From the IMG/VR virus record IMGVR_UViG_3300032007_000010: 64,000 nucleotides of DNA; one strand, given 5' to 3'. Below the pieces are notes generated by a model. That model saw nothing but the letters and a program-made list of their open reading frames with translations. It ran no database searches and was not told where the DNA came from. Positions 1-56,708 of this stretch are shown here, piece by piece (the stretch's first letter is position 1; each line of letters starts with the position of its first letter). The position numbers were made by a program, and so were the translations under genes. The stretch comes from a virus. Taxonomy: Duplodnaviria; Caudoviricetes.

Positions 1-315
1 TACGTTGGCGATGATCCAGTCGATACCGTCGAAGCGCACATACGAACCCTTGGTAAGAGTACCCGAAATTCTATCTGAACCATATTCACCAGCTGGTTTC
101 CCGGTAATTAGTTGACCGTACGCATCCCAGGCATATATACCATACTCAAGATCATCCACTGTTACATTTGCCCCAGAAAAATCGAAAGTCTTCTCATTGT
201 ACATTTGTTCCCAGTACGCAGCCTGTTGCTGTGCTGCCGTCAACTGCGTTCGCAATGTTCCGATCTCGGCATTGAGCTCAGAGATCTTCGAAGCATTTGG
301 CTTATTATAGATCAT
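1..315 (-). CDS. Putative tail-fibre/receptor-binding-type protein, N-terminal part (runs off the window)
   Basis: Not in ORF track. Manual translation from ATG at 315 after GGAGG: MIYNKPNASKISELNAEIGTLRTQL...SGANVTVDDLEYGIYAWDAYGQLITG...GSYVRFDGIDWIIANV, open to the window edge; coiled coil then fibre-like motif. Confidence 0.55.
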   Translation of the reverse strand, partial: MIYNKPNASKISELNAEIGTLRTQLTAAQQQAAYWEQMYNEKTFDFSGANVTVDDLEYGIYAWDAYGQLITGKPAGEYGSDRISGTLTKGSYVRFDGIDWIIANV

Positions 316-360
316 GTCTGATCCTCCATGCGCTACAGCCCTACCCTCTGTGCGCTTATC

Positions 361-372
361 TATAACCATGTC
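361..372 (-). promoter_or_regulatory. Late-type promoter motif GACA-TGGTTA-TA within a perfect inverted repeat (TATAACCATG T CATGGTTATA)
   Basis: Matches the recurrent ACA-N6-TA motif; upstream of the 315 start. Confidence 0.45.
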
Positions 373-390
373 ATGGTTATAGATCTCGAA

Positions 391-411
391 CCCCTCCCGA
401 ACCGGGAGGGG
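391..411 (-). terminator. Putative terminator hairpin CCCCTCCCG/CGGGAGGGG
   Basis: GC-rich inverted repeat just after the stop of 417..1049. Confidence 0.5.
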
Positions 412-416
412 CAGGA

Positions 417-1049
417 TCATTTGAAGGACTTCAGTTTTTCGGCCACATCGAAGAGGCCGCTGTCGGTCATTTCGCCACGATGCTTCTCGGCGAGCTTAAT
501 ATACTTTTCCACGCGCTGCCAGTGATTGTCTTCCATTCCGTCATACCATCGATCGATGAAACGGTCCACACGACCGACCGTGGCCTTGATGTCGATGAAG
601 ACTGCATCACCCTTGTGCACCGCCTTGTGCGCGGTCTTGGTGAGAAAGACCACCTGCACGTTATCGAGCTCATGCTCGGTCAGCACCTGATCAGCCACAT
701 CGAAGCTGCACAGGTCCTTTATCTTCCCACGGCGCATGGATGCCTTGAGCACAATATCGCAGTAATCGAACAGTGTGAACAAACTGCCGTGGTGCATCTC
801 CAGGTCCACGTTGTCATTCTTTTCCACCACATGACCGATGATGGCGCAGTGATCAAAGCCTGCCTGGCGCACCTTGCCCACGTACTTCTTGTATCGATCA
901 TCCTTGCGCACCGCAAATTCACAGGCCTTCACAAATTTGACATAGGAATCGTAGTCGTGAAGAAGCACCTCCGGATCCGCGCCGAAGGATATGAACTTAT
1001 CCTCGTTGCGTCCGGTTCCATATATCCGAATCACATCGCTCTTGGCCAT
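417..1049 (-). CDS. Hypothetical protein with His-rich HNH-like motif
   Basis: 210 aa; C..IG...LEMHHG.LFTLFD and H..VH motifs; GGGGGTG RBS. Confidence 0.6.
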   Translation of the reverse strand: MAKSDVIRIYGTGRNEDKFISFGADPEVLLHDYDSYVKFVKACEFAVRKDDRYKKYVGKVRQAGFDHCAIIGHVVEKNDNVDLEMHHGSLFTLFDYCDIVLKASMRRGKIKDLCSFDVADQVLTEHELDNVQVVFLTKTAHKAVHKGDAVFIDIKATVGRVDRFIDRWYDGMEDNHWQRVEKYIKLAEKHRGEMTDSGLFDVAEKLKSFK

Positions 1050-1067
1050 TTATTTTTACACCCCCAT

Positions 1068-1087
1068 AACATTATTATAGGATCGTT
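1068..1087. promoter_or_regulatory. Overlapping divergent late-type promoters: AACATTATTATA (+, 1068-1079) and AACGATCCTATA (-, 1076-1087)
   Basis: Both fit the ACA-N6-TA motif seen at many other sites (the minus-strand copy has ACG). Confidence 0.5.
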
Positions 1088-1400
1088 GAATGTTTTCGAT
1101 TTCGACGACCCATGAATCACAAGGGGGGGGTTTGACCCCACCAAAAACAACCGTCGATCGTGAATCGACACAACAACCTCACTTCGCTACAATCATACTC
1201 GTTTGAACCTCCTACACAATACAAATTCGGTAACCAGCCAAAAACATCCTTTCTTAGCAATGGGGAAAGATCTCGGATTTGACCGAGCCGTAAACCATGC
1301 TCACAACACGTGATGCTTTCTTTTTATGTCTTTCGACACGTGGTAGTGAAACTCCTTTCTAAAAGCATAGCACGCTCCCCGGGTTGATTCCCGGGGAGCC
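1079..1400 (+). ncRNA. Putative ~320-nt non-coding RNA with four anti-Shine-Dalgarno segments
   Basis: No ORF of 60 aa or more starts here; upstream promoter motif; short hairpins separated by A/C-rich linkers; ACCTCAC, ACCTCCT, TCCTTTCT, CTCCTTTCTA; 10-bp terminal hairpin 1374-1399. Confidence 0.4.
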
Positions 1401-1419
1401 GTCGTTTCATATGACCGCG

Positions 1420-1431
1420 AACATCCTTATA
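1420..1431 (+). promoter_or_regulatory. Late-type promoter AACA-TCCTTA-TA
   Basis: Motif upstream of the structural/RNAP operon. Confidence 0.6.
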
Positions 1432-1479
1432 AGTTGGAGAATGACCTATTTTTATGCCAGGAAAGGCGGTGTATATTGA

Positions 1480-3690
1480 GTGACCTACGAATTTCTCCAA
1501 AGTCTGTACAGCGATATTCTGCTCATGCTCGAGCGCATCGTCGTCAAGCGCGATGATCTTGCGTACGAGAACGAGACCGCCGAGACGGCGCGGGCCTTTG
1601 ATCTATATCTAAGCTGCCTCAATGGCAGCCGCTATTTCTACAACTTCAAGAACTTCGACATCGATATTCTTCAGAAGTACCTTGATCCGGCGGCTGTCAA
1701 CGAGTGCTACTATGATTCCAATAAGATTCCGGAGGAATACAGAGAATCGATCGTCGAGGACCAGTCGAACAGGGTCATCAACAACTTCGAGGAAAAGAAT
1801 AACTACTATCGGATGCTGATGGGTCTTCCCAACGTGGAGGATACCCAATGGATCTACCTCACCGACACCGAGGGGATTCCGAGCGACGTGCCGGTGCACG
1901 AGCTCAGCGTCGAGCAGATCAGCTACCTCGATGCGTCCGGCATCATCGACAAGCTCAAGCTTCTATACCCCGATGCGGCCTACCTCGACTATCTCGGCGC
2001 CAACTCCATCGACCATCTGACGGCGCGGCTCGCAAAGCCCTTTGATATCCTTCGGCTCGGTGTTCCGACCCGAGCCTCGGCAACCCTCGTTAAGGAGATG
2101 TTCGAGCGCGAATATTACTGTGCCCGACGCTATGTGATGGCAAACATCTATGACACAACACTCTTCAACAATCGCACACTCTACGAGCCGGTGATCGGTG
2201 TGCTTATGCTGACACTCGCCGTGCGGAACACGCTTGTTCCGGACGAGGCCGCATATCTGAACTTCGAAGAGATTCTCGACGCGATCCTCGAGTCCTATGG
2301 CATGCTCAAATACTTCGAGAATTTCCCGTTCATCTTCAAGCGTCGGCTTGTCATGGCCATGGATAAGATCCTCACCATAAAAGGCACCGACAAGGTCCTC
2401 GTCGATGTGTGCAAGATCTTCTCCATGGATAACTTCATAGCCAACAGATACTACCTCATGAAGTATCAACCGAAGACCACGGACGGGACAATTCCGGTGA
2501 GTGGAGATCCCACCAAGGACTATGATCTCAAGTTCGTCAAGGTTCCGATCGTTGATGATGATATCGGGTTTGGTACAGAGGACGTGACCGACTATGAGAC
2601 CGTCACAAAGCCGGACTATCTCTGGCAGCTCAGCGACGAGGAATATCGGAAGATGCTCGCCGATGACTTTAATCTGCGCATGACCAAGTATGTGGATGTT
2701 GAGGCTGCCTATGATGTATCTGCGCTCAACTTCGAGGTGTGTTACTTCCTCAACATGATTCTCCAATCGAGACCCTACGAATCTAAGATCTTCTGCACCA
2801 ACCAATACACAACCGCCGGCAAGAGCGACATCTATACCATGATTGTTTTTCTGCTCGCCGGTCTTGCCAAACGATCCGGCTTCGATGGCAACATTGTGTA
2901 CGAGGCAGAGGACATTGCGGAAATCATGCGCTTTGATTCTGGAGCTGTCGGCGAGGAAATCCAGCGCATCGTAAACTCATACGAATCGCTCATCGATGTG
3001 GATGCCGGAACAACACTGGTACCGGGCTATGATAGTCCTCCCGCGCTTTCGCTTCCACACCGTGCCGGCACCACAGATCTTGAGATGATCGAAATGTATG
3101 TGCACAATCGTGCGATGTACAACGCCATCGTCAAGGAGATGAACTCCACCAATGACATTCGTCGATACATCGCACTCCAACATGCGCGCGACTGTCTCTA
3201 CATCTCGCACATGGAGCACGAAAATTTCCGCAAAGTTGACGGTAGCTATGCCACGACCTACCATGAGATGCTCGAGGAGCTTGACCCGAAGCTCGCGGAG
3301 AAGCTCGATTCCATAGACATGGACGAGAATGCCAACGAACTCGATGTGGTTCTTGTCTATGCGCTCGAAAAGCTCGAGGACCTGTTCTCCTCCGAAGAGC
3401 TCAAGTATCTATTCATCAACACATCCTCTGCCTATGGCGCACTGATCGAAAAATATCTGCGCATGGCGATCAATGTATTCAAGGCGTCTTCGGTCCAGCT
3501 AGATTCGATCAATGTGATCTTCACGCTCGGTGACGATATACCGATTCGAGTGATTGACCAGCTCGAACACCACGAGACAGAGGCGCTCGACGATACGGTC
3601 TATGTTTCCGACGAACTGGCGTTCCACCGCAGCATCGCGATCGATGATGTGGTGAGGGTTGAGACGAAGGCGTATAACAATATCCAATGA
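1480..3690 (+). CDS. Putative virion structural protein (baseplate wedge-like)
   Basis: 736 aa; NNYYRMLMGLP and IKGTDKVLVDVCKIF motifs recalled from jumbo-phage virion proteins; follows late motif. Confidence 0.55.
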   Translation: MTYEFLQSLYSDILLMLERIVVKRDDLAYENETAETARAFDLYLSCLNGSRYFYNFKNFDIDILQKYLDPAAVNECYYDSNKIPEEYRESIVEDQSNRVINNFEEKNNYYRMLMGLPNVEDTQWIYLTDTEGIPSDVPVHELSVEQISYLDASGIIDKLKLLYPDAAYLDYLGANSIDHLTARLAKPFDILRLGVPTRASATLVKEMFEREYYCARRYVMANIYDTTLFNNRTLYEPVIGVLMLTLAVRNTLVPDEAAYLNFEEILDAILESYGMLKYFENFPFIFKRRLVMAMDKILTIKGTDKVLVDVCKIFSMDNFIANRYYLMKYQPKTTDGTIPVSGDPTKDYDLKFVKVPIVDDDIGFGTEDVTDYETVTKPDYLWQLSDEEYRKMLADDFNLRMTKYVDVEAAYDVSALNFEVCYFLNMILQSRPYESKIFCTNQYTTAGKSDIYTMIVFLLAGLAKRSGFDGNIVYEAEDIAEIMRFDSGAVGEEIQRIVNSYESLIDVDAGTTLVPGYDSPPALSLPHRAGTTDLEMIEMYVHNRAMYNAIVKEMNSTNDIRRYIALQHARDCLYISHMEHENFRKVDGSYATTYHEMLEELDPKLAEKLDSIDMDENANELDVVLVYALEKLEDLFSSEELKYLFINTSSAYGALIEKYLRMAINVFKASSVQLDSINVIFTLGDDIPIRVIDQLEHHETEALDDTVYVSDELAFHRSIAIDDVVRVETKAYNNIQ

Positions 3691-3707
3691 AAGGGAGGTT
3701 CCAGCCA

Positions 3708-4562
3708 ATGAATCCAAAGAATGAACACGTGCACATCGGCGAGATTCTCGATGTGAATGGTCGTCGCTATGATGGTGAAGCGGGACGCATCATCGGTGAT
3801 GTGACCGTTATCCATAGATCCAAACGTGGAAATGTCATGTTTACTCGCACGCTCCACGATCACAATGATCTTCTCGTCACGGGTGCAGTCTTCCTCTCCG
3901 AGAAGGCCAACAACATGCGTTCAGGTTTTATCACCACCGCCAATGACGTGTCCCTCGGAGTGCACACGGCCGATCAGCTTGTCATCGATGATACGACGAT
4001 CCCCGAAGAAAAGATTGCTGGCATCATGGTTGGCAACGGCGGGTCCGGAGACACCTACAACACGGTGTACAAGGTCGATCGTTCTGCGCTCACCGTTCCA
4101 TCTCCGGTGCCCTTCCGCGTCGTTCCGGTCGCCGAAGACCTCAGCGGCGAAACATGCAAGAAATACTTCCTGCGCGTGGTCCGCGGTGACTATGCGTATT
4201 ACTATGGCAAGACCTTCGACATCGACCGTGAGATATGTGTCCTCTATGAGGATGGGACCACGGTTCCGGTGGATGCCGATACATCCTCTTCCTCCGGCAA
4301 GTTCGTGCGAGTGTTTTCTCGCTACCGTGCGGTGCTCGATGCCGAGGATATCCGTGAGTTCTTCAAGGTGAACTATGGGTCCACGCTGCGCTCGCTCATC
4401 AACTCGGTCGGTCTTGTTACCGGCTATCCGGGCGTCGCCAGCGATGGTTCCTATGATGAATTCTTCAATGTGCGCACCATGACCACCATGAACATGGAGA
4501 ACCAAGAGCTAAAGGATTCCGAGTCCACGGTCACCTTTATATACAGACTCTTCATCCAGTGA
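3708..4562 (+). CDS. Putative virion structural protein
   Basis: GGGAGG RBS; MVGNGG and VPFR motifs; same operon as upstream structural gene. Confidence 0.5.
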   Translation: MNPKNEHVHIGEILDVNGRRYDGEAGRIIGDVTVIHRSKRGNVMFTRTLHDHNDLLVTGAVFLSEKANNMRSGFITTANDVSLGVHTADQLVIDDTTIPEEKIAGIMVGNGGSGDTYNTVYKVDRSALTVPSPVPFRVVPVAEDLSGETCKKYFLRVVRGDYAYYYGKTFDIDREICVLYEDGTTVPVDADTSSSSGKFVRVFSRYRAVLDAEDIREFFKVNYGSTLRSLINSVGLVTGYPGVASDGSYDEFFNVRTMTTMNMENQELKDSESTVTFIYRLFIQ

Positions 4563-4581
4563 TAGAAAGGAGTGTTGGTCC

Positions 4582-5796
4582 ATGGCTCGTGATCTGAGAG
4601 GCACTCCGAAGGAACAGCAGTTCTTTGCGCTGCTCAAGACCGTCGATCTCAATAATCCGACCGCGGATTTCTTTGACAAAGCTTTTGCGGCGCACCTGGA
4701 TGGTCCGGAACTCTTTCATCCCGACGATGTGATTCGCATCGGTCCCGAACACTCCAGGTTTGTGAAGCCAGACTCCGATACCACCATAGGCATCTTCATC
4801 GTGAATAAGTTCATCTTCGAGATGCTCGAGGTATTCGGTTATCTGAATGTGGAGTTTGGCAAGGTGTGGAAGAAGCTCGATGCGAAGGTCGCAGAAGCGC
4901 TGGTGGCCGGAGACATAACCACCGAACAGTTTGGAGAATACATTGACCGCTGCCAGTTTCTCTTCGGTGGAACACTCGCGCACATCATCAATCCATCACT
5001 GTCTTCGACCATCATCAAACTGCCACCCGCCGCCAAGAAGCAGAAAAAGGAACTCATGAAAGAGAATGCCGAAGCCCTCGCCGCAAACGATACCGAGGCA
5101 GCGTCGCGCGTCGAACGTGCGGTCACAAAGACCGCGGTCGATGAGATGCGCAAGGCCGGTGACCCCGCCATCTCAATCTTCGATTCCGGAGCAGTTGACC
5201 CGTACAACAACATGAAGACCATGCTCGTGATGAAGGGTTCTGTCGAAGATCCCACCGGCGAATCTCCGACCGGATACAAGGTTGTCACCAGTGACTACAA
5301 CGAGGGCATCTCGAAGAAGGATATGCCAGCCATTGCGAATGCCGTGGTGAACTCGTCCTATTCATCCGGCGTTAAGACACAGGATGCTGGTTACATCGGC
5401 AAGAAATACAATGTGCTCATGCAACGCGTGACCATCGGTCCCAAGGGCTCCGACTGTGGAACCGGTGATACGATGACGGCGGTTGTAACCTCCCGCTTCC
5501 TCCATCGTTTTATGCTCGAGGGCAACAAACTCGTGGAACTCACCGCAGAGAACCTCGATCAATACAAGGGCAAACGCGTGAGGTTCAGATCTCCGCTGCA
5601 CTGCAAGATGAAGGATCCATGCTATTGCAACGTGTGTGTGGGTAATCGATTCTATAATCTTGGCATCAACAATGTCGGTCTCAGCATGAGTGTTCTGAGC
5701 GGATCTCTGCTGAATGCGTCGCTCCAGAGCAAGCACAACTCGGTATTGAGCTTCTACAAGCTGACATCGGATGACCTGATGAAATACGTGAACTGA
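4582..5796 (+). CDS. Phage multisubunit RNA polymerase beta' subunit, C-terminal fragment (probably virion RNAP)
   Basis: Bridge-helix-like TQDAGYIGKK, SDCGT, RSPLHCK and CNVCVG zinc-site motifs typical of the RpoC C-terminal half. Confidence 0.88.
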   Translation: MARDLRGTPKEQQFFALLKTVDLNNPTADFFDKAFAAHLDGPELFHPDDVIRIGPEHSRFVKPDSDTTIGIFIVNKFIFEMLEVFGYLNVEFGKVWKKLDAKVAEALVAGDITTEQFGEYIDRCQFLFGGTLAHIINPSLSSTIIKLPPAAKKQKKELMKENAEALAANDTEAASRVERAVTKTAVDEMRKAGDPAISIFDSGAVDPYNNMKTMLVMKGSVEDPTGESPTGYKVVTSDYNEGISKKDMPAIANAVVNSSYSSGVKTQDAGYIGKKYNVLMQRVTIGPKGSDCGTGDTMTAVVTSRFLHRFMLEGNKLVELTAENLDQYKGKRVRFRSPLHCKMKDPCYCNVCVGNRFYNLGINNVGLSMSVLSGSLLNASLQSKHNSVLSFYKLTSDDLMKYVN

Positions 5797-5807
5797 TCAA
5801 AGCAACA

Positions 5808-5833
5808 GCACACCCGGTCGATTCCGGGTGTGC
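5808..5833 (+). terminator. Terminator-like hairpin GCACACCCGG/CCGGGTGTGC
   Basis: Inverted repeat followed by TTCTCTT after RNAP gene. Confidence 0.6.
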
Positions 5834-5876
5834 TTCTCTTCGTTCCGCTCATTTTCTCGGAGCATTCTCATCGATG

Positions 5877-5888
5877 AACATTACTATG
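5877..5888 (+). promoter_or_regulatory. Late-type promoter AACA-TTACTA-TG
   Basis: Motif match. Confidence 0.45.
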
Positions 5889-5935
5889 ATGCAGTGCAGG
5901 AGTGTATCTATCCGAGCAAAATGGGGGGTGTTCCA

Positions 5936-6445
5936 TTGAAGACATTTGAATTAAAGGTTACAGCACCCCCGGTGGTAGGGGCTCTGACCTCTCAAGACCT
6001 TGAATATGTGGTGAGTCGCATCGGGCATCACAGGTTTCTGTCCAGCTCATCGTCCAGCCTTACGGTGCTACGCTCCAAACTATTCGAAGCGTGCAAAACC
6101 ATGGCGTATATTAGCCAGATACTCCACAACTTCTTCGAACTCTCATCGCTGAATATTTGCATGGATGAGGATGGACGATCCTCGATCGGAATAATCCGTG
6201 TGCTATCGTTCATATCACGTCATAGCCTCGAAAGCTTCGATGATAATTCGTATGTGGAAATTAAATTCGATGCAAGGTCCGAATCTAGGGAATACTACCG
6301 GGTACGTGTATGGCGCGGCGACAGGATGTGTGTAGATCGTGTCTACGAGGTAAAGGACCATATCTATTCGTATGATATGAATTTTCCAACACCGAGCGAA
6401 TTCGCATACATGATCGCAAGAGCGCTTACCGAAGAGAGAATCTAA
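5936..6445 (+). CDS. Hypothetical protein
   Basis: ORF; TTG start after GGGGGTG RBS. Confidence 0.55.
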   Translation: MKTFELKVTAPPVVGALTSQDLEYVVSRIGHHRFLSSSSSSLTVLRSKLFEACKTMAYISQILHNFFELSSLNICMDEDGRSSIGIIRVLSFISRHSLESFDDNSYVEIKFDARSESREYYRVRVWRGDRMCVDRVYEVKDHIYSYDMNFPTPSEFAYMIARALTEERI

Positions 6446-6627: not shown

Positions 6628-7044
6628 GGGGGCGAAATGGTTTCGACGGGGGTTGATTCCGAGGATTGCATCGGCTGGCGGAATCCAGCATAAAAGTCCG
6701 ACTCATAAATTAAACGCGAACGATTACTACGTTCCTGCTCAGGCTGCTGCCTAATTAGGCGGTAAGCCCGAGACGAGCCCGAGTACTCTTTGGCGGTTCT
6801 CTTGAGAGCTCGGTAGTTAAGCAAAATCGCCCACCTCCATGGGATAGTTGTGTCACCTAACCATCGTTTTTGAGTAATCAAAACAGAGGTGCAAAGAAAG
6901 ACACGAACAGGTGGGACTGTCTAAAATTCCTATCTACCGGCAAAGTTGCCCGTGCTTAGCCGGTGATTAGGTGATCGGGATAACGATGTAGATATCCAGA
7001 GATAGATGCTTCGGACGCCGGTTCAATTCCGACCGCCTCCACCA
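6628..7044 (+). ncRNA. ssrA: tmRNA, 417 nt; tag peptide ANDYYVPAQAAA (6716-6754)
   Basis: GGGGGCG...CGCCTCC-ACCA acceptor stem with G3.U pair, GGTTTCGAC 5' motif, GGTTCAATTCC T-arm, resume context TAAATTAAAC-GCG, tag ending AAA*. Confidence 0.95.
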
Positions 7045-7133: not shown

Positions 7134-7209
7134 CCGGGTGTAGCGAAGTTGGTATCGCGCTTGCTTTGGGAGCATGAGGCCGTGGGTTCGAGTCCCACCA
7201 CTCGGACCA
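7134..7209 (+). tRNA. tRNA-Pro(TGG)
   Basis: Cloverleaf CCGGGTG/CACTCGG, anticodon loop TT-TGG-GA, GGTTCGAGTCC, encoded CCA. Confidence 0.92.
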
Positions 7210-7637: not shown

Positions 7638-7722
7638 GCCGGTATGGCGGAATTGGTAGACGCGCCGGATTTAGGTTCCGGTGTCATATGACGTGTCGTT
7701 TCGAGTACGACTACCGGCACCA
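7638..7722 (+). tRNA. tRNA-Leu(TAG)
   Basis: GCCGGTA/TACCGGC acceptor, CCGGA-TT-TAG-GT-TCCGG anticodon arm, long variable arm, encoded CCA. Confidence 0.92.
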
Positions 7723-7727
7723 ATCAT

Positions 7728-7803
7728 GGGCAATTAGCTTAGCGGTTAAAGCAGCCGGCTCATAACCGGTCGACCCTCTGTTCGAATCAGAGATTGCCCA
7801 CCA
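7728..7803 (+). tRNA. tRNA with CAT anticodon, most likely tRNA-Ile2 (lysidine type)
   Basis: GGGCAAT/ATTGCCC acceptor, GCCGG-CT-CAT-AA-CCGGT arm; paired 1:72 and no GGG/CCC anticodon stem, so not initiator; resembles Bacillota Ile2. Confidence 0.85.
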
Positions 7804-9740: not shown

Positions 9741-11846
9741 TCAGATGAGGTCCGTTTGCTTGAGCACCACGAACTGAAGCATTTCACCGTAGTCCAGATC
9801 GAGGGTGAGGAGATTGATTCCGTTGTGCTCCTTATCGATTTCGTAATCGATGCCAGGACGCAGAATCGTTTGGTTAAGATTGACCACCAAACGATCGCGA
9901 TATGCATCGTAGTTCGAGATATTAACGATGTTCACGGTTCCATCCGCGACGGACTCATAGGTCGAAGCGTAGGGCACGATCTTTCCAGGAGCTTCCCTGG
10001 CTTCTTCGAGCTGATCATCGATGTAGCTGCGAAGATCGTTGTTCTTATCCTGGGTCGACACGCTCCACGCAAACTTGGAGGTGGAGGTTCCGCTATTACC
10101 AACGTAGAGATATGTCTCGTCGGCATGCGTCCAGATATCTCCGATGGGTTGAAGCTTACCATCCGAATCGGTCGTGGGTGCTTCGCAGGGGTGCACATTG
10201 ATGGTCTGCGGTCGCGCACCGAGATTATGAGGGATGATGGTCTCATAGATCGTTCCGGTTTCCGGATCAACACCGGAAAACTCACCCTCACCGCTGCTGG
10301 TTAGATAGGTGGGAACCAGCTGGCTCACATCGACCTTGCCGTGCATGAGCGAGAACCAAACCCGCTTGCTCTCGTTATACACCACCCACAGATAGGTTCC
10401 GGCACGGAATCCTCCGGTGATTGGCATGTCAAACACATCACAAACCGGCAGCGCAGGACCATCGACAAACTTGATGGTTGGGTAGTTCTTCAGCCTATTC
10501 TTCAGCTTTATGAGCAACACATAGTTGTCACAGAGCGTGGAGTGAGAGATGTTGAAGAGTAGATGCTGGCCATCGTGGTCGCGGGATTCGGCAACATTGA
10601 AGTTTGGCACATCAAGCATGGCACCCTGGAGAATCGTGTAGAAGATTTCCTCTCCGGATGCAAGTGTCTTTTGCAGCAGAACAATGCCACCGACCTCATC
10701 GATCGTGTAGTCCACATCGAGAATGAGCAGCGAGTTATCCTGCATGATCGAAATGTCGTCGCGTCTGTGGTCAAACTCGGGGACCAGGAAGTATCCGGTC
10801 TCGGTGTCTGCGGTGTATGATCCATGGATCACGTTGAGCTTATAGCGATAGTTGCCGGTGGCTCCCCAGTTGTTTGGAATGAGCTCGCCGGGGCATTCCA
10901 CAAACTGTGTGATTACGAAATGAAGCACATCGCCCTTTGATAATACGATGTTGTGCAGAGTGATAATGCACTCTTCGGGATCATAGTCATAGTCTAGGCC
11001 ATTGCGCAGAATTGTCTGGTTGAAGTTTACAACCATGCGATGTGCGCCAATTACCTCGCCTGGAACAGGTACCACCGTGGTATTGTCTGCGGTGATCTCA
11101 ACATCTTTGACGATGTCCTTGAGCTCGTAGCGGTAGTGGCCGCTCTTTGCTGTGGTGACGTAGCTGATGATTGTGAATTGGAGAATTTCACCCTCACTCA
11201 GTCCAAATCCGATGAGTCTGATGCTATTGTTCACCGACTTCGTATATTCGTAGTCGGTACCGAACCTCAGAATGGTCTGGCCGTAGTTTACCACCAGTTT
11301 ATCCGTTCGTTTATTGAAGCCGGGGATGACGATGGTTTGGGTATCATCGGCGTCGGCCTCAAAGGTATAATCAGTCTCAACCGGCAGCACAACCTTGGTG
11401 ACATCAACAAAGCTGTTGGTGCTCATGAGGATCCACTTGTCCAGAGACTCATTCCACACGAGGAAAATGGTGGCGTCGGCCATCTGTCCACCTGGGATAC
11501 GTTCACCGTTCGCGCTGATGATCTGCTTATTCTCTCCACCGTTGAAGCTAAGTGTTGGTTCGGCCTCGAGGGTCTTGCTCAGCGTAACCATGAGAGGAAG
11601 ACCGTCGGAAAGAGCGGTACCCCGAAGAGTAACCTTCAGGGCCCGCTCGGTTCCTTCGGCAAGGACATGATTCAGATGAACCGTTTTGTCCTCGAGATGG
11701 CGGTCGTACCGGATCAGATCAGATTCCAGTACGCCGCCATTCTCAGATCTCAGAATATTTTCGGTGATCCCCTGGGGGAACAACACATCATATTCACCGG
11801 AAGAGGACGAGGAGTTGAAATGTCTCATTCGTATGAGCCTATTCAT
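9741..11846 (-). CDS. Tail/baseplate-associated structural protein with repeated beta-rich domains
   Basis: Four copies of a V..NQTILR.G.DY...L..G..LQF-like unit. Confidence 0.6.
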   Translation of the reverse strand: MNRLIRMRHFNSSSSSGEYDVLFPQGITENILRSENGGVLESDLIRYDRHLEDKTVHLNHVLAEGTERALKVTLRGTALSDGLPLMVTLSKTLEAEPTLSFNGGENKQIISANGERIPGGQMADATIFLVWNESLDKWILMSTNSFVDVTKVVLPVETDYTFEADADDTQTIVIPGFNKRTDKLVVNYGQTILRFGTDYEYTKSVNNSIRLIGFGLSEGEILQFTIISYVTTAKSGHYRYELKDIVKDVEITADNTTVVPVPGEVIGAHRMVVNFNQTILRNGLDYDYDPEECIITLHNIVLSKGDVLHFVITQFVECPGELIPNNWGATGNYRYKLNVIHGSYTADTETGYFLVPEFDHRRDDISIMQDNSLLILDVDYTIDEVGGIVLLQKTLASGEEIFYTILQGAMLDVPNFNVAESRDHDGQHLLFNISHSTLCDNYVLLIKLKNRLKNYPTIKFVDGPALPVCDVFDMPITGGFRAGTYLWVVYNESKRVWFSLMHGKVDVSQLVPTYLTSSGEGEFSGVDPETGTIYETIIPHNLGARPQTINVHPCEAPTTDSDGKLQPIGDIWTHADETYLYVGNSGTSTSKFAWSVSTQDKNNDLRSYIDDQLEEAREAPGKIVPYASTYESVADGTVNIVNISNYDAYRDRLVVNLNQTILRPGIDYEIDKEHNGINLLTLDLDYGEMLQFVVLKQTDLI

Positions 11847-14571: not shown

Positions 14572-15834
14572 CTACGACTCAGGGTCGGCCTGCTTGAATA
14601 CGATGAACTGGAGAATGTCCCCAGCGTTGAAACGAATCTTCTGGAACACGAGACTTCCCTCTTCTTCGATCACGAAGTCTGTCGTAGGTTGCAGGATAGT
14701 CTGGCCAAAGATAACGATCAGCTTATCGAAGTTCGGGTCGAAATCTTCGACGTGGTTGATCGTATCCGTGCTGTCAATCGCTATCGTTTGGGTGGACATC
14801 CGGGCATCGATGAGACCGGGTCTGGCCTTGAGCAGGCTCACGGCATTGCTGATGGTGGTGTTGAGACGTTCCTCCATCTGCTCAATGGTATTCGCCATGT
14901 CCGTGAAACGTTGCTGATAATCCTGGATTGCCCATTCGAGACGCGTGTTGGCGGCATTGAGGCGTTGACAAACCAACTTCATGACCTGCATGACCGTTGA
15001 AGATGCGGCGTCGCACACAACAAAGGATTCGTTCTGCTCATCGTAGATCAGCATTATAATATTGTTTGCTAAAATGGGGTACCCCCAGGAATCACCATTC
15101 ACATCCACAAGGGGTTTCTCGGATGCACCGTTTACTCTGAGCGTGGCATTCTCATCGATATCTGCCGTAGCATAGAGGCAGAGCACGTCGAGGTCGGCAA
15201 GACTGCCAGAGATCACACAGCTGATAGATGACCCACTGCTTGTGGTTTCGGCATAGTAGCTCGACGGTGAAAGCGAGGTCCAGCCAACGAAGAGATTCTG
15301 CTGTGTGTTGTACCTCCCGGTGTAGGTAATCATCGAATGATTATCGTAGTATTGGCAAAGCACTGCCTCGGGAGACGATTTGAACACCGTCACGATTCCA
15401 GAGTTGGAGGGAAATCCCATGGTTTCATAGTTCTCATATTCAACCAATGAGGTTAGAATGGCCGGCTCCTCCATCTGACGGATGATGCTATCCATGGAGA
15501 GGGACACACCGAGCTGGGTGAGCTGGGAGATGGACGAATAGAGATGAATGCCGTTCACCATGTCGGAGTTTAGCAGCTTGGTGTCCGGATCGAACTTCGA
15601 AGTAATCTGACTGATGTGTGCAACCGAATTTGGACAAAATAGTTCACCGGTGGTCGGATTCTTCACATAGAAACAACCTTCGGTGTAACTCACACCGATC
15701 TCACCCGGCGCCAGAAGATTCTTGTCCTCGTCGGATTTAATTTCTTTGACGATGATTCTGAAGATCTGCGCGAGGAGCGCCATCTGATAGTCTGTCATCG
15801 TTCGCTGGGCGGTCATGGAACTGGCTGGATTCAT
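14572..15834 (-). CDS. Tail-associated structural protein
   Basis: LAPGEIG fibre-like N-terminal motif; C-terminal domain paralogous to that of 9741..11846. Confidence 0.55.
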   Translation of the reverse strand: MNPASSMTAQRTMTDYQMALLAQIFRIIVKEIKSDEDKNLLAPGEIGVSYTEGCFYVKNPTTGELFCPNSVAHISQITSKFDPDTKLLNSDMVNGIHLYSSISQLTQLGVSLSMDSIIRQMEEPAILTSLVEYENYETMGFPSNSGIVTVFKSSPEAVLCQYYDNHSMITYTGRYNTQQNLFVGWTSLSPSSYYAETTSSGSSISCVISGSLADLDVLCLYATADIDENATLRVNGASEKPLVDVNGDSWGYPILANNIIMLIYDEQNESFVVCDAASSTVMQVMKLVCQRLNAANTRLEWAIQDYQQRFTDMANTIEQMEERLNTTISNAVSLLKARPGLIDARMSTQTIAIDSTDTINHVEDFDPNFDKLIVIFGQTILQPTTDFVIEEEGSLVFQKIRFNAGDILQFIVFKQADPES

Positions 15835-37013: not shown

Positions 37014-38816
37014 ATGAGCGTCGATTATATAAAGATGCTGAAGCAGACGGACAAGCTCCAGATTCATGCAGATCTGGATACACTGGATCTGTACTGCGAA
37101 TATTTGCTCAACTATGAAAATCGCAACATCAATTTCTCCAATCTGTCGAACCTGAAGGAATACTTCAGTCGTGTGAGCGAGGATAGTTTCAAACAGAACG
37201 AGGCCAAAATGGCCCGTTATTTTTTCATCCATTATTATCTCGAGGGTAGGCTCGACAAGGGGATTGTCTCTCCGAAGATATGCATGCAATATGTGCTTGA
37301 TCATGTATCAAAGAAGTACGCGGCCATAATCAAGCGCGATGTGATGGAGGGGATCCAGCACAATCGCATGAGCAAGAAGGACATCGAGTTCATGAACGAC
37401 ATGATCTTCAGTCAGCTCAACACCTTCTTCCTCAACGATTATAAAGAACCCATCATGAAGATGTTGGCGGATCTCAACAACAATGAGCTTGGTCGAGATG
37501 CGGAGGACTGTGACAATGTGATCAGGCTATTCCAGTCCATGATGAACAAGCTCACGACGGCTCGGCGCAAATCACGCCAAGAGAATCGTTTTGATCTGGT
37601 GGATGAGGATCATTTCAACGCGGTGATGATGGAGGCGGCGGAACGCGCACTTTCGACGGCACACTATCTCATCACCGGTTGGCAGGGTCTGAACAAGATG
37701 CTCGGCGGTGGTTTCGAAGATGCTCGTGTCTACAACTTCATCGGTGCGACGGGTGGTTTCAAATCAGGTCTGCTGCTGAACATCATGAAGCAGATCAAGC
37801 TCTACAACAAGGGCAGAGCCCACAAGGATCCGACCAAGCGACCGACGATACTGTTTCTGTCCCAGGAAAACAACATCTGGGAAACCTTCCTGCGCATCTA
37901 TGGCATCTTCGGCGGAACCGACATCAAGGCTCACAGCGTCAAAGACATCCTCAAGATCATGCGTGATGGCGGATTCCGTGTGGTCCAGGATGAACTCGAT
38001 ATCAACATCGAGTTCAGATACTATGGCAACATGGACATCGGTGTTCCGGACATCAAGGGCATCGTCGAAGAGCTGGATAACTCCGGCAAGGAGGTTATCT
38101 GCATCATCCAGGACTACATCGAACGTCTTCGTCCTCCCTATTCTGGCGTGGAGAAACGCAATGCACTCGCCGACGTGTCGAACCAGATGCACGATCTGGC
38201 CATCGAGCTTGACATTCCGATCATCACCGCATCACAGTTCAACCGCGAGGGCGTTGCAACCGTGGAAGAAGCGCGAGAAAAGGGTCACGTGGACATCGGT
38301 AAGAAGGTGGGTACCGGGAACATCTCGGAATCCTTTGGCATGCTCAAGAACTTCGATGCCAACATTGCCATCGTGGTTGAATATGATTCGAGCGAGCAAC
38401 GGTACTATCTGTCCTTCAGACGCTTGAAGTTCCGCGGCGATACCACCGATGGCATGGATTACTTCCTGCAACCGTTCATGGGACAGAACACCATGATTCG
38501 ACTCATGGATGATATATCCACCGGACCTGTCTATCGTCTCAGTCTCCTCGACGAGCTTGCAGCGCAGATCCAGGAGGACCGCGATGCAATCATCGACATC
38601 ACTCGTCGAGAGGTAAGCTTCCTGGATCAGATCACCGACGATCCGCAGGATGTGGATGCCGCAGAGTTCATGAATCTGGTTCGCCAGGATGTGGAGCAAT
38701 CCGCGGTTCCGCAGGACGACATGCTTCGTGATGCGGACGGTTTCTGGATTCTCATTCCGCGGATGCAACAGCTGGATCTCAGCGGTCTCAACGTGGTTGG
38801 GGCCATGTCGCACTGA
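37014..38816 (+). CDS. Replicative DnaB-like helicase
   Basis: TGWQGLN..LGGGF, Walker A GATGGFKS, QDYI, IITASQFNR. Confidence 0.9.
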   Translation: MSVDYIKMLKQTDKLQIHADLDTLDLYCEYLLNYENRNINFSNLSNLKEYFSRVSEDSFKQNEAKMARYFFIHYYLEGRLDKGIVSPKICMQYVLDHVSKKYAAIIKRDVMEGIQHNRMSKKDIEFMNDMIFSQLNTFFLNDYKEPIMKMLADLNNNELGRDAEDCDNVIRLFQSMMNKLTTARRKSRQENRFDLVDEDHFNAVMMEAAERALSTAHYLITGWQGLNKMLGGGFEDARVYNFIGATGGFKSGLLLNIMKQIKLYNKGRAHKDPTKRPTILFLSQENNIWETFLRIYGIFGGTDIKAHSVKDILKIMRDGGFRVVQDELDINIEFRYYGNMDIGVPDIKGIVEELDNSGKEVICIIQDYIERLRPPYSGVEKRNALADVSNQMHDLAIELDIPIITASQFNREGVATVEEAREKGHVDIGKKVGTGNISESFGMLKNFDANIAIVVEYDSSEQRYYLSFRRLKFRGDTTDGMDYFLQPFMGQNTMIRLMDDISTGPVYRLSLLDELAAQIQEDRDAIIDITRREVSFLDQITDDPQDVDAAEFMNLVRQDVEQSAVPQDDMLRDADGFWILIPRMQQLDLSGLNVVGAMSH

Positions 38817-39587: not shown

Positions 39588-40129
39588 ATGATCTCTTTCA
39601 AAAGTATGTGTTCTGGGATTTCGACGGTGTTCTGTGCACCTACCAGGCTCTGCCGGATCGGTGTCACATTATGACCGATGAATACCTCAAATCCTTCATA
39701 ACCAAACCAGACCAGCCATTTTCATGCAGTCGAGCGCCAAAGACGCTGGTAGAACTTCAGCAGAGTCTTGACGTGGACAGACAATACGTTCTCACCGAGG
39801 AAACCTCTTCGCTGGAACATGCCGCCAAACTTTCATTCCTCCGAAAGAACCACTATTGTTTTAACCCGGACAGAGTCATCGGTGTATCCTCAAAGGATCA
39901 GAAGGTTGTGGTCATGGAAGCGATCTATGAGCGTGAACTGGCGCACATGACGAAGTTCTGGAGCGATGAATTGCTCGGGGTCGATCCTTTCCTGTCCACG
40001 GAGATCATCAAGCAACGCACGGCTAAGCTTCGGAAAGATTTCGTGCTCATCGAAGATACCGTGAGTAACATCAACGCCGCCGAAGATGCTGGGTTTTCGG
40101 CGATCCACATCACATCACTCATGCCATAA
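39584..40129 (+). CDS. HAD-superfamily hydrolase
   Basis: FWDFDGVL motif I; LIED...N motif IV. Confidence 0.8.
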   Translation: MNDLFQKYVFWDFDGVLCTYQALPDRCHIMTDEYLKSFITKPDQPFSCSRAPKTLVELQQSLDVDRQYVLTEETSSLEHAAKLSFLRKNHYCFNPDRVIGVSSKDQKVVVMEAIYERELAHMTKFWSDELLGVDPFLSTEIIKQRTAKLRKDFVLIEDTVSNINAAEDAGFSAIHITSLMP

Positions 40130-52868: not shown

Positions 52869-52892
52869 TCCGACCATATTCGAAGCTTGAAC

Positions 52893-52903
52893 TATATACT
52901 ATA
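52893..52903 (+). promoter_or_regulatory. Early-type promoter motif TATATACTATA enclosed by inverted repeat TTCGAAGCT/AGCTTCGAA
   Basis: Exact motif. Confidence 0.6.
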
Positions 52904-52923
52904 GCTTCGAAAGGAGGGTCAAT

Positions 52924-53316
52924 GTGATGATAGATAGCTACCGATTGGATGAGGTTAGATATAGTCGCGAAGACAGGAAACACCTTGCCACCTTTGTGAC
53001 ACTCGATGGTTGCGAACTTGGTCTCGATATCCAGTGGGAACTTCGAGGTCTGCGCTTCACCATATTTCGGAAACATAAGCGCGACAAGCTTGCGACAACC
53101 AGGTGGATCAGCTTTGCGTCTAGTCAGGAAACGATGTACAACACACTCTACGAATTGGTACTAGACTATTATCGGGAGCACGGGAAGACACTCGAAGACA
53201 ATGGGTTGCCAACCTTCACACGCATAGAGCTTCGGGTCCCGATCTCCCATCTTCATTTTCATATCAACGCGGGAACATTGAGCGATCTCCTGCAGAAGGA
53301 GATAATCTACAACTAG
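52924..53316 (+). CDS. Hypothetical protein
   Basis: AAAGGAGG RBS. Confidence 0.55.
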   Translation: MMIDSYRLDEVRYSREDRKHLATFVTLDGCELGLDIQWELRGLRFTIFRKHKRDKLATTRWISFASSQETMYNTLYELVLDYYREHGKTLEDNGLPTFTRIELRVPISHLHFHINAGTLSDLLQKEIIYN

Positions 53317-56680: not shown

Positions 56681-56708
56681 GGCACATGATGTAGAAAGGA
56701 GAGATTCC

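Follow-up and report, generated by a model that had tools for sequence, protein, structure and literature searches.

An uncultured rumen jumbo phage very probably encodes a stand-alone non-coding RNA with anti-Shine-Dalgarno-like boxes

Here we describe an RNA gene in a 64,000-nucleotide (nt) stretch of DNA from a tailed phage (IMG/VR record IMGVR_UViG_3300032007_000010; Caudoviricetes), which we refer to throughout as the window. We consider it highly likely that positions 1079-1408 on the plus strand are a real, stand-alone phage non-coding RNA gene: the unit begins at a late-type phage promoter, ends in a terminator hairpin, is kept at the same place in related phages and yields an RNA that, by the depth of its contigs in RNA libraries, accumulates to high levels. 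The source of the window is an uncultured rumen jumbo phage, a distant relative of phage AR9, and the RNA is uncatalogued, as no Rfam family matches it. Between its hairpins lie short pyrimidine-rich boxes that resemble the 3' tail of Bacillota 16S ribosomal RNA (rRNA), that is, the anti-Shine-Dalgarno (anti-SD) sequence. The original prediction, which was made from the letters of the window, had noticed these boxes and had proposed an array of antisense guides. The likeliest of the readings, in our view, is that the RNA is a generic multi-site anti-SD riboregulator rather than a set of gene-specific guides and, judging from its sequence, we suggest tentatively that its multiple accessible boxes may mask or titrate Shine-Dalgarno (SD) sites in a generic manner.

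Transcription unit and expression

The RNA gene occupies a divergent gap between a minus-strand gene and a plus-strand gene (Table 1). The original prediction had rightly called the gap intergenic but had put its size at about 320 nt, whereas it spans 430 nt (1050-1479). The late-type promoter and the terminator that it had read on the plus strand are both in place, and the unit is discrete: it has a promoter and a terminator of its own, and the RNA falls wholly inside the gap and overlaps no gene. The late consensus mapped in AR9 is AACA-N6-TA/G, in which the last base is the transcription start (Lavysh et al., 2017, mBio, PMC5312081). The promoter P1 (AACATTATTATA) fits this consensus, which would place the start of the RNA at A1079, and the RNA would be transcribed late by the non-virion RNA polymerase (RNAP) of the phage, a timing judged solely from promoter type.

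The strict form of the motif, AACA-N4-TATA[AG], occurs eight times in the window against 0.42 expected, a 19-fold enrichment, and six of the eight copies sit 32-64 nt before the SD sequence and start codon of a long open reading frame (ORF) on the same strand. No ORF follows the copy at 1068. Similarly, 27 of the 39 late-motif copies precede genes in a complete relative (G001). All 18 distinct relatives that we examined retain the P1 motif, and in all relatives examined a second late promoter, P2, follows the terminator and serves the structural gene. The terminator hairpin lies 295 nt downstream of A1079, and its counterparts in the relatives carry clear T runs on the plus strand (for example, L012, L009, L016, and L022).

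On the minus strand, a candidate promoter, AACG-N4-TATA, has its TATA in common with P1. It stands 38 nt from the ATG at 1049, within the range of 32-64 nt, and the relatives have (A/G)AC(A/G)-N4/5-TATA at this site, with a perfect AACA in L009, L010, and L027. This motif probably serves the 210-amino-acid (210-aa) gene, so two promoters would stand back to back. We considered whether the RNA might act as a cis-antisense RNA on the 210-aa gene and rejected this candidate, since its predicted start at 1079 is upstream of the ribosome-binding site (RBS; 1060-1066) and the start codon (1049) of that gene, and the RNA runs away from both.

The RNA is present in rumen metatranscriptomes. A bovine rumen run (X1) contains a 265-nt contig that is identical to 1093-1357 and has a k-mer depth of 93, and the sole other contig on 800-1800 lies in the structural gene at a depth of 3.7; contaminating DNA would not be expected to produce a step of about 25-fold from one stretch to the next. 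A run from a second study (X3) contains a 205-nt contig over 1161-1365. Neither of these runs covers the 210-aa gene or 1366-1736, and a third run (X2) has no contig on the RNA stretch. The expressed transcript supposed in the original prediction is thus borne out by RNA contigs from two studies, all of them confined to 1093-1365.

Table 1. Features of the RNA locus in the window
Feature	Position	Strand	Remarks
210-aa gene	417..1049	-	phrog_12252, function unknown; flanks the RNA gene
Late-type promoter P1	1068..1079	+	AACATTATTATA, exact AACA-N4-TATA motif
Candidate back-to-back late promoter of the 210-aa gene	1076..1087	-	AACG-N4-TATA; TATA common with P1
Probable non-coding RNA, ~325 nt	1079..1408	+	Promoter- and terminator-bounded
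5' hairpin	1083..1108	+	8 base pairs (bp), one G-U pair; begins 4 nt past the transcription start
Variable segment	1127..1169	+	Two small hairpins, 1127-1139 and 1153-1169
Anti-SD-like box 1	1176..1182	+	ACCUCAC; pairs 3 kcal/mol better with translation start regions than with gene-internal controls (predicted)
Anti-SD-like box 2	1207..1213	+	ACCUCCU; predicted unpaired probability 0.92
Anti-SD-like box 3	1247..1254	+	UCCUUUCU (DNA TCCTTTCT); predicted unpaired probability 0.36
Weak fifth box	1316..1321	+	CUUUCU; between the arms of the 1307-1342 hairpin
Anti-SD box 4	1352..1361	+	CUCCUUUCUA (DNA CTCCTTTCTA); 12 nt before the terminator stem
Terminator hairpin	1374..1399	+	10-bp GC stem (1374-1383 with 1390-1399), then a weak U tract to ~1408
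Late promoter P2 of the 736-aa gene	1420..1431	+	Strict motif; outside the RNA
736-aa virion structural protein gene	1480..3690	+	phrog_20751; flanks the RNA gene

Conservation, fold and strand

We examined the loci of more than 100 metagenomic homologues of the 736-aa structural protein. These relatives came from an alignment-based scan of IMG/VR, a single-protein peptide scan of IMG/VR having matched nothing, and the closest of them (L001, 89% identity) has only 55 nt of upstream sequence. Wherever a distinct relative has an identity of 46% or more and a gap of 230 nt or more, the order is the same. The minus-strand gene comes first, then P1 and, immediately past the start, a hairpin; a C/U-rich body (147-341 nt across the relatives) leads to a GC hairpin followed by a plus-strand T run, beyond which lie P2 and the structural gene. 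Comparison with the syntenic locus in relatives, a check suggested in the original prediction, thus finds the architecture at the same place in 16 non-redundant orthologues, with the anti-SD-like boxes as the most conserved feature of the family.

The RNA is missing from two relatives (L025 and L026, with a gap of ~140 nt), and in three others (L028-L030) a protein gene stands in its place. Many loci from clades at 25-30% identity keep the divergent gene pair within ~200-350 nt as measured on alignments, the true gap being ~80-130 nt as estimated by eye; from the small gaps in these distant clades, we believe that the RNA gene is an accessory insertion of one clade. As a separate observation, the plus-strand ORF in L028 (880-1440), L029, and L030 fills most of a gap of 640-680 nt and is preceded by a different conserved AT-rich motif, similar to GACATTTGATTAATTACA, which may be the early promoter type of this lineage.

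All five hairpins listed in the original prediction (1083-1108, 1127-1139, 1153-1169, 1272-1287, and 1307-1342) are found where it had placed them. Minimum-free-energy and centroid folds reproduce four of the five and give 1307-1342 only as its inner stem, the outer pairing, between two copies of CACGTG, having been read by eye. The predicted fold of the window RNA has an energy of -90.6 kcal/mol (z = -2.0). A hairpin lies within the first 48 nt of nearly every orthologue, despite differing sequences. Rfam gave no relevant match in 900-1600 at E values up to 10, RsaE included, and across the window at the gathering score it gave only transfer-messenger RNA (tmRNA) and transfer RNAs (tRNAs).

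A strain in run X8, a library of unrecorded type, is 95-99% identical to the window and lacks ~30 nt inside 1128-1172 through several small indels, which remove two RNA hairpins and leave the boxes untouched; segment 1127-1169 therefore appears to be dispensable. The same strain carries one substitution in 1173-1400 against five in 1480-1800, which means that constraint on the part with the boxes is no weaker than on the coding flanks. Pairing itself is conserved in a sister subclade (alignment A3, seven sequences), where 92.6% of cells are paired against 35-43% when the partners are slid, a comparison that favours pairing somewhat because the structure was derived from the alignment on which it was scored. 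Thirteen pairs changed on both sides in this alignment, and one helix has compensatory changes in five of its ten pairs and 100% pairing.

The many G-U pairs of A3 would be A-C mismatches on the other strand, and the plus-strand RNA folds better than its reverse complement in 16 of 19 RNAs. Taken together, the agreement of the promoter, the terminator T runs, and the G-U pairs points to the plus strand as the strand of the RNA. The opposite reading is that the minus strand carries micro-ORFs or leader peptides, with the boxes as real RBSs upstream of the 210-aa gene. On that strand the boxes do read as good SD sequences, their density is like that of small-gene clusters, a few have start codons behind them, and in L004 an ORF is called at 69 aa. 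However, a start codon follows the SD-like box by 4-11 nt in only 14 of 40 cases among the orthologues, against ~32% expected, which is the level of chance. The same figure bears on the claim of the original prediction that each box is the complement of an SD sequence, a spacer and a start codon: CAC, CAT, or CAA does stand 5-12 nt before each box in the window, but in the relatives the start-codon complement is no more frequent than chance, and this part of the proposal is not supported. The minus-strand ORFs vary in length between 1 and more than 65 codons and have no peptide in common, no ORF on either strand is common to the orthologues, near-identical relatives differ by a 1-nt indel within the longest minus-strand ORF, and indels between close relatives or strains are not multiples of three. 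Moreover, the abundant RNA does not run on into the 210-aa gene. Given the chance spacing of start codons and the lack of a conserved peptide, we rejected the chain of micro-ORFs, and we consider translation of the minus strand very improbable indeed.

Conservation also bears on whether the RNA has any function in trans. P1 could be no more than the second face of the bidirectional promoter of the 210-aa gene, with the terminator stopping the divergent transcript before it reaches the structural gene; in a variant of this explanation, the transcript is a read-through leader that regulates the 736-aa gene. Such a by-product would fit the TATA that P1 has in common with the minus-oriented motif, and divergent late promoter pairs with starts 34-52 nt apart are common among the AR9 entries of Table S3 (PMC5312081). 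It would also fit the relatives in which the RNA is missing or replaced by a protein gene and the distant clades that manage with a gap of ~80-130 nt. Nevertheless, a by-product would not keep 150-340 nt with compensatory changes and a conserved 7-mer, nor would it show fewer strain substitutions than the coding flanks, and a leader is at odds with the structural gene having its own P2 past the terminator in all relatives. For these reasons, we see little probability in a by-product or cis element.

Anti-SD-like boxes

The four boxes described in the original prediction (ACCTCAC, ACCTCCT, TCCTTTCT, and CTCCTTTCTA) are all at the positions that it gave. Box 4, a 10-nt copy of the Bacillota-type 16S tail, is, as judged from sequence comparison, the conserved signature of the family, with the motif UCCUUU or CUCCUUU just upstream of the terminator. 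TCCTTT occurs in 14 and CTCCTTT in 11 of the 16 non-redundant orthologues, whereas no 6-mer is common to more than 10 in shuffled sequences, and the last box is 2-28 nt before the terminator in 15 of the 16. In the window RNA, 5-mers from the 16S tail turn up 17 times, whereas dinucleotide shuffles give 4.2 +/- 2.4, and the locus of the RNA has the highest density of 16S-tail 6-mers on the plus strand of the whole window. Across the 19 RNAs, we counted 177 such 5-mers on the plus strand, compared with 76 +/- 10 after shuffling and 20 on the reverse strand; the relatedness of these RNAs inflates the total, although its direction is uniform. Most relatives carry one or two boxes and the window RNA has the largest set, so that the four-box array is special to this lineage and is not a trait of the family.

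The boxes are predicted to be mostly unpaired, with box 3 partly sequestered in a weak G-U-rich hairpin through weak pairing with the GGGGAAAG segment. Five segments of the window RNA are predicted to pair 3-5 kcal/mol better with the translation start regions of the phage than with gene-internal controls, the strongest preference, 5 kcal/mol, being that of box 2.

Cold-shock proteins, S1, and Rho prefer pyrimidine-rich single strands, and the RNA might be a sponge for such a pyrimidine-tract protein, its likeness to the anti-SD sequence being incidental. The bodies are 52-69% pyrimidine and, in several relatives, poor in G (L027: G 13%, pyrimidine 69%), and they are predicted to be largely unpaired, all of which would suit a sponge. 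What speaks against it is that a specific word is kept, CTCCTTT, which composition-preserving shuffles do not reproduce. We therefore regard a protein sponge as improbable.

Search for targets

Within the window, exact complementarity of at least 10 nt to the RNA is near chance, ends at 10-11 nt, and involves only generic RBSs. The original prediction had singled out a match to the RBS of the RNAP gene (4563-4573); this is generic SD similarity, and the same 10-mer occurs again at 56692. In G001, the boxes match three RBSs over 12-13 nt, and in two complete relatives the only exact occurrence of the 12-mer complement of the pre-terminator box is at the locus of the RNA itself. With no complementarity beyond such generic RBS matches of 10-13 nt in the window or the complete relative, the multi-guide antisense array is not upheld. 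Duplexfold energies of the whole RNA were uninformative (-26.6 for start regions against -26.5 for internal controls).

One match of another kind was noted. The segment after the 5' hairpin of the L006 orthologue is perfectly complementary over 16 nt to L117:1501-1520 (-), which corresponds to G001:138123-138142, where ~0.02 such matches are expected by chance. The site falls inside a 263-aa ORF, close to its C-terminus, and within three mismatches nothing equivalent was found in the sister genome G002. We also considered that late genes might escape the RNA through a different type of SD sequence, and rejected this, since pairing with the boxes is at least as good for late-gene RBSs as for those of other genes.

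Comparison with known RNAs

The Bacillota small RNAs (sRNAs) RsaE/RoxS and the 3' domain of RNAIII expose C-rich motifs that pair with SD regions and block ribosome loading. The window RNA resembles RsaE/RoxS in being a stand-alone RNA with a terminator and exposed C-rich motifs, and pairing with SD regions is predicted for it. In contrast to these host-encoded RNAs, which have UCCC motifs in loops and defined regulons (and, for RsaE, a length of ~100 nt), it is phage-encoded from a promoter of the phage RNAP type, two to three times longer, and unrelated in sequence, and its boxes, placed in linkers, are copies of the 16S tail (CUCCUUUCU).

The RegB endoribonuclease of phage T4 acts on the SD sequence (GGAG) of many mRNAs and so reprogrammes translation in infection. 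Here we would draw a functional analogy only, as RegB is a protein nuclease that is made early and cleaves its targets, whereas the window RNA could only mask or titrate them.

A likeness in design is found in AR9 itself. Table S3 of Lavysh et al., 2017 (mBio, PMC5312081) lists the late starts 75478(-) and 115851(+) as antisense transcripts, with no function assigned to them there, and among the starts in part 1 of that table 75478(-) shows the greatest step height (3757). The RNA from 75478(-) has a single-stranded CCUCCU at its start, followed by a 16-bp hairpin and a U-rich tail, and that from 115851(+) has CCCCUC and, by eye, a terminator-like hairpin. Like the window RNA, both have an AR9-type late promoter, no ORF, a C/U-rich anti-SD-like word, and a terminator-like hairpin, and the first, as far as part 1 of the table goes, also has a very high output. 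They differ in being ~75-90 nt long with one box and no 5' hairpin, against ~325 nt and four to five boxes, and in their places in the genome, next to g090/g091 and g141/g142; we take the likeness as one of design. We located the two RNAs at L115:490-579 (-) and L116:252-345 (+), where they look like short stand-alone RNAs.

A copy of the anti-SD sequence can also serve protein binding. Helix P6 of OLE RNA mimics an SD/anti-SD duplex and is bound by ribosomal protein bS21 (PMC12054373), which makes OLE a Bacillota non-coding RNA with an exact 16S anti-SD copy whose biological role has been shown. OLE otherwise differs: this host RNA, ~600 nt in length, has a complex fold that is conserved, holds its anti-SD copy paired within a helix, and resembles the window RNA in neither structure nor sequence. 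The precedent nevertheless raises the alternative that the window RNA is a 16S-tail decoy, in which the boxes mimic the 16S 3' end and sequester a protein or nuclease that recognises the tail, for example bS21, a factor of 16S maturation or decay, or a ribosome-targeting defence toxin. The identity of the boxes with the 16S tail, which reaches 10 nt, would suit such mimicry, and the high abundance of the RNA would suit titration. The same RNAs also hold G-rich segments with which a box could pair, one being the CGGGG loop that is invariant in A3. Yet the pairing of box and G-rich loop did not covary consistently in A3 when followed by eye, and the conserved core is UCCUUU, without the upstream GAUCA part of the tail. 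Three related genomes encode no bS21, for which reason we dropped a phage-encoded bS21 as a candidate. On this evidence, a decoy seems unlikely, albeit with a precedent.

The phage and its flanking genes

At protein similarities of 22-32%, the sequenced phages closest to this one are the uracil-DNA jumbo phages AR9/PBS1, the Staphylococcus S6 group, and Yersinia phiR1-37; a search with window positions 1-6000 found no similarity to sequenced phages at the DNA level. The 210-aa protein has no Pfam family and no named structural neighbour and matches only unnamed viral clusters. Members of its family are common to AR9/PBS1, Staphylococcus S6-like phages, phiR1-37, and Listeria phage LPJP1, and in metagenomic relatives, down to ~25% identity, the gene is often paired divergently with the 736-aa virion gene. 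The phage also encodes a tmRNA at 6628-7044 (+) (Rfam, 108 bits; tag peptide ANDYYVPAQAAA) and, all on the plus strand, tRNA-Pro (7134-7209), tRNA-Leu (7638-7722), and tRNA-Met (7728-7803).

A perfect late-type motif, AACAATATTATA, is present at 15055-15066 (-) within a minus-strand ORF and recurs with nearly the same downstream sequence in G001 at 37710 (+). It may be a conserved internal late promoter, and we rejected it as a sign of a paralogous RNA gene given its position inside an ORF. The long gaps 10826-11394, 39588-39924, and 52869-53160 of a crude gene map hold no promoter-RNA-terminator unit. G001 has an orphan late promoter on its reverse strand (index 118562), followed by a small hairpin and CUUUCCUCCUUUUU; its transcript would be antisense to the RBS and start codon of a divergent gene, and from this example these phages may also use true cis-antisense anti-SD RNAs.

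Discussion

We propose the following model for the RNA as a generic riboregulator. First, the non-virion (late) RNAP of the phage would transcribe the RNA from P1, and the 5'-terminal hairpin and the 3' terminator hairpin would probably stabilise it. Between the hairpins, single-stranded pyrimidine-rich boxes would present copies of the 16S rRNA 3' tail, through which the abundant RNA could pair with the purine-rich SD regions of many mRNAs. Finally, this pairing would mask or titrate RBSs late in infection. Late timing, pairing with SD sites, and an effect on translation are all steps that we infer, and it is for this reason that we hold the model tentatively.

Several observations weigh against it. 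No gene-specific target was found in the 64-kb window or in the complete 260-kb relative, and the boxes, at 6-10 nt, fall short of the usual length of sRNA-target duplexes. Among the orthologues, L022 lacks a box altogether and several carry just a 6-mer. Because the RBSs of late genes pair equally well or better, an anti-SD RNA of this generic kind would act on the late mRNAs of the phage as well; selectivity among mRNAs is unexplained by the boxes, and a sparing of late mRNAs is unsupported. Furthermore, the boxes read as ordinary RBSs on the minus strand and similar densities occur where small genes cluster, the U tract behind the window's terminator is weak, and the contigs carry neither strand information nor exact RNA ends.

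Jumbo phages with their own RNAPs are known for protein-based takeover of the host, and we know of hardly any study of their non-coding RNAs. Our literature searches found no description of phage RNAs such as these. The RNA described here is conserved, structured, very abundant, and, by its promoter, presumably late, and the only words that it conserves are copies of the sequence with which the ribosome docks onto mRNA. It is conceivable, though on present evidence rather doubtful, that hyper-abundant late RNAs with copies of the 16S tail are produced by the AR9-like jumbo phages generally and redistribute translation initiation throughout the infected cell, either as a stoichiometric sponge for RBSs or as a decoy of the 16S tail. 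If this were true, such RNAs would be the RNA counterpart of protein host-shutoff factors, and the array of four to five boxes in the window would be their most expanded form. As AR9 has a small RNA of the same design, the hypothesis is directly testable in Bacillus subtilis. Should these RNAs prove to mask RBSs or to mimic the 16S tail, they would represent a new, RNA-based form of viral control over host and viral translation, and they would offer a natural template for generic translation-blocking RNAs.

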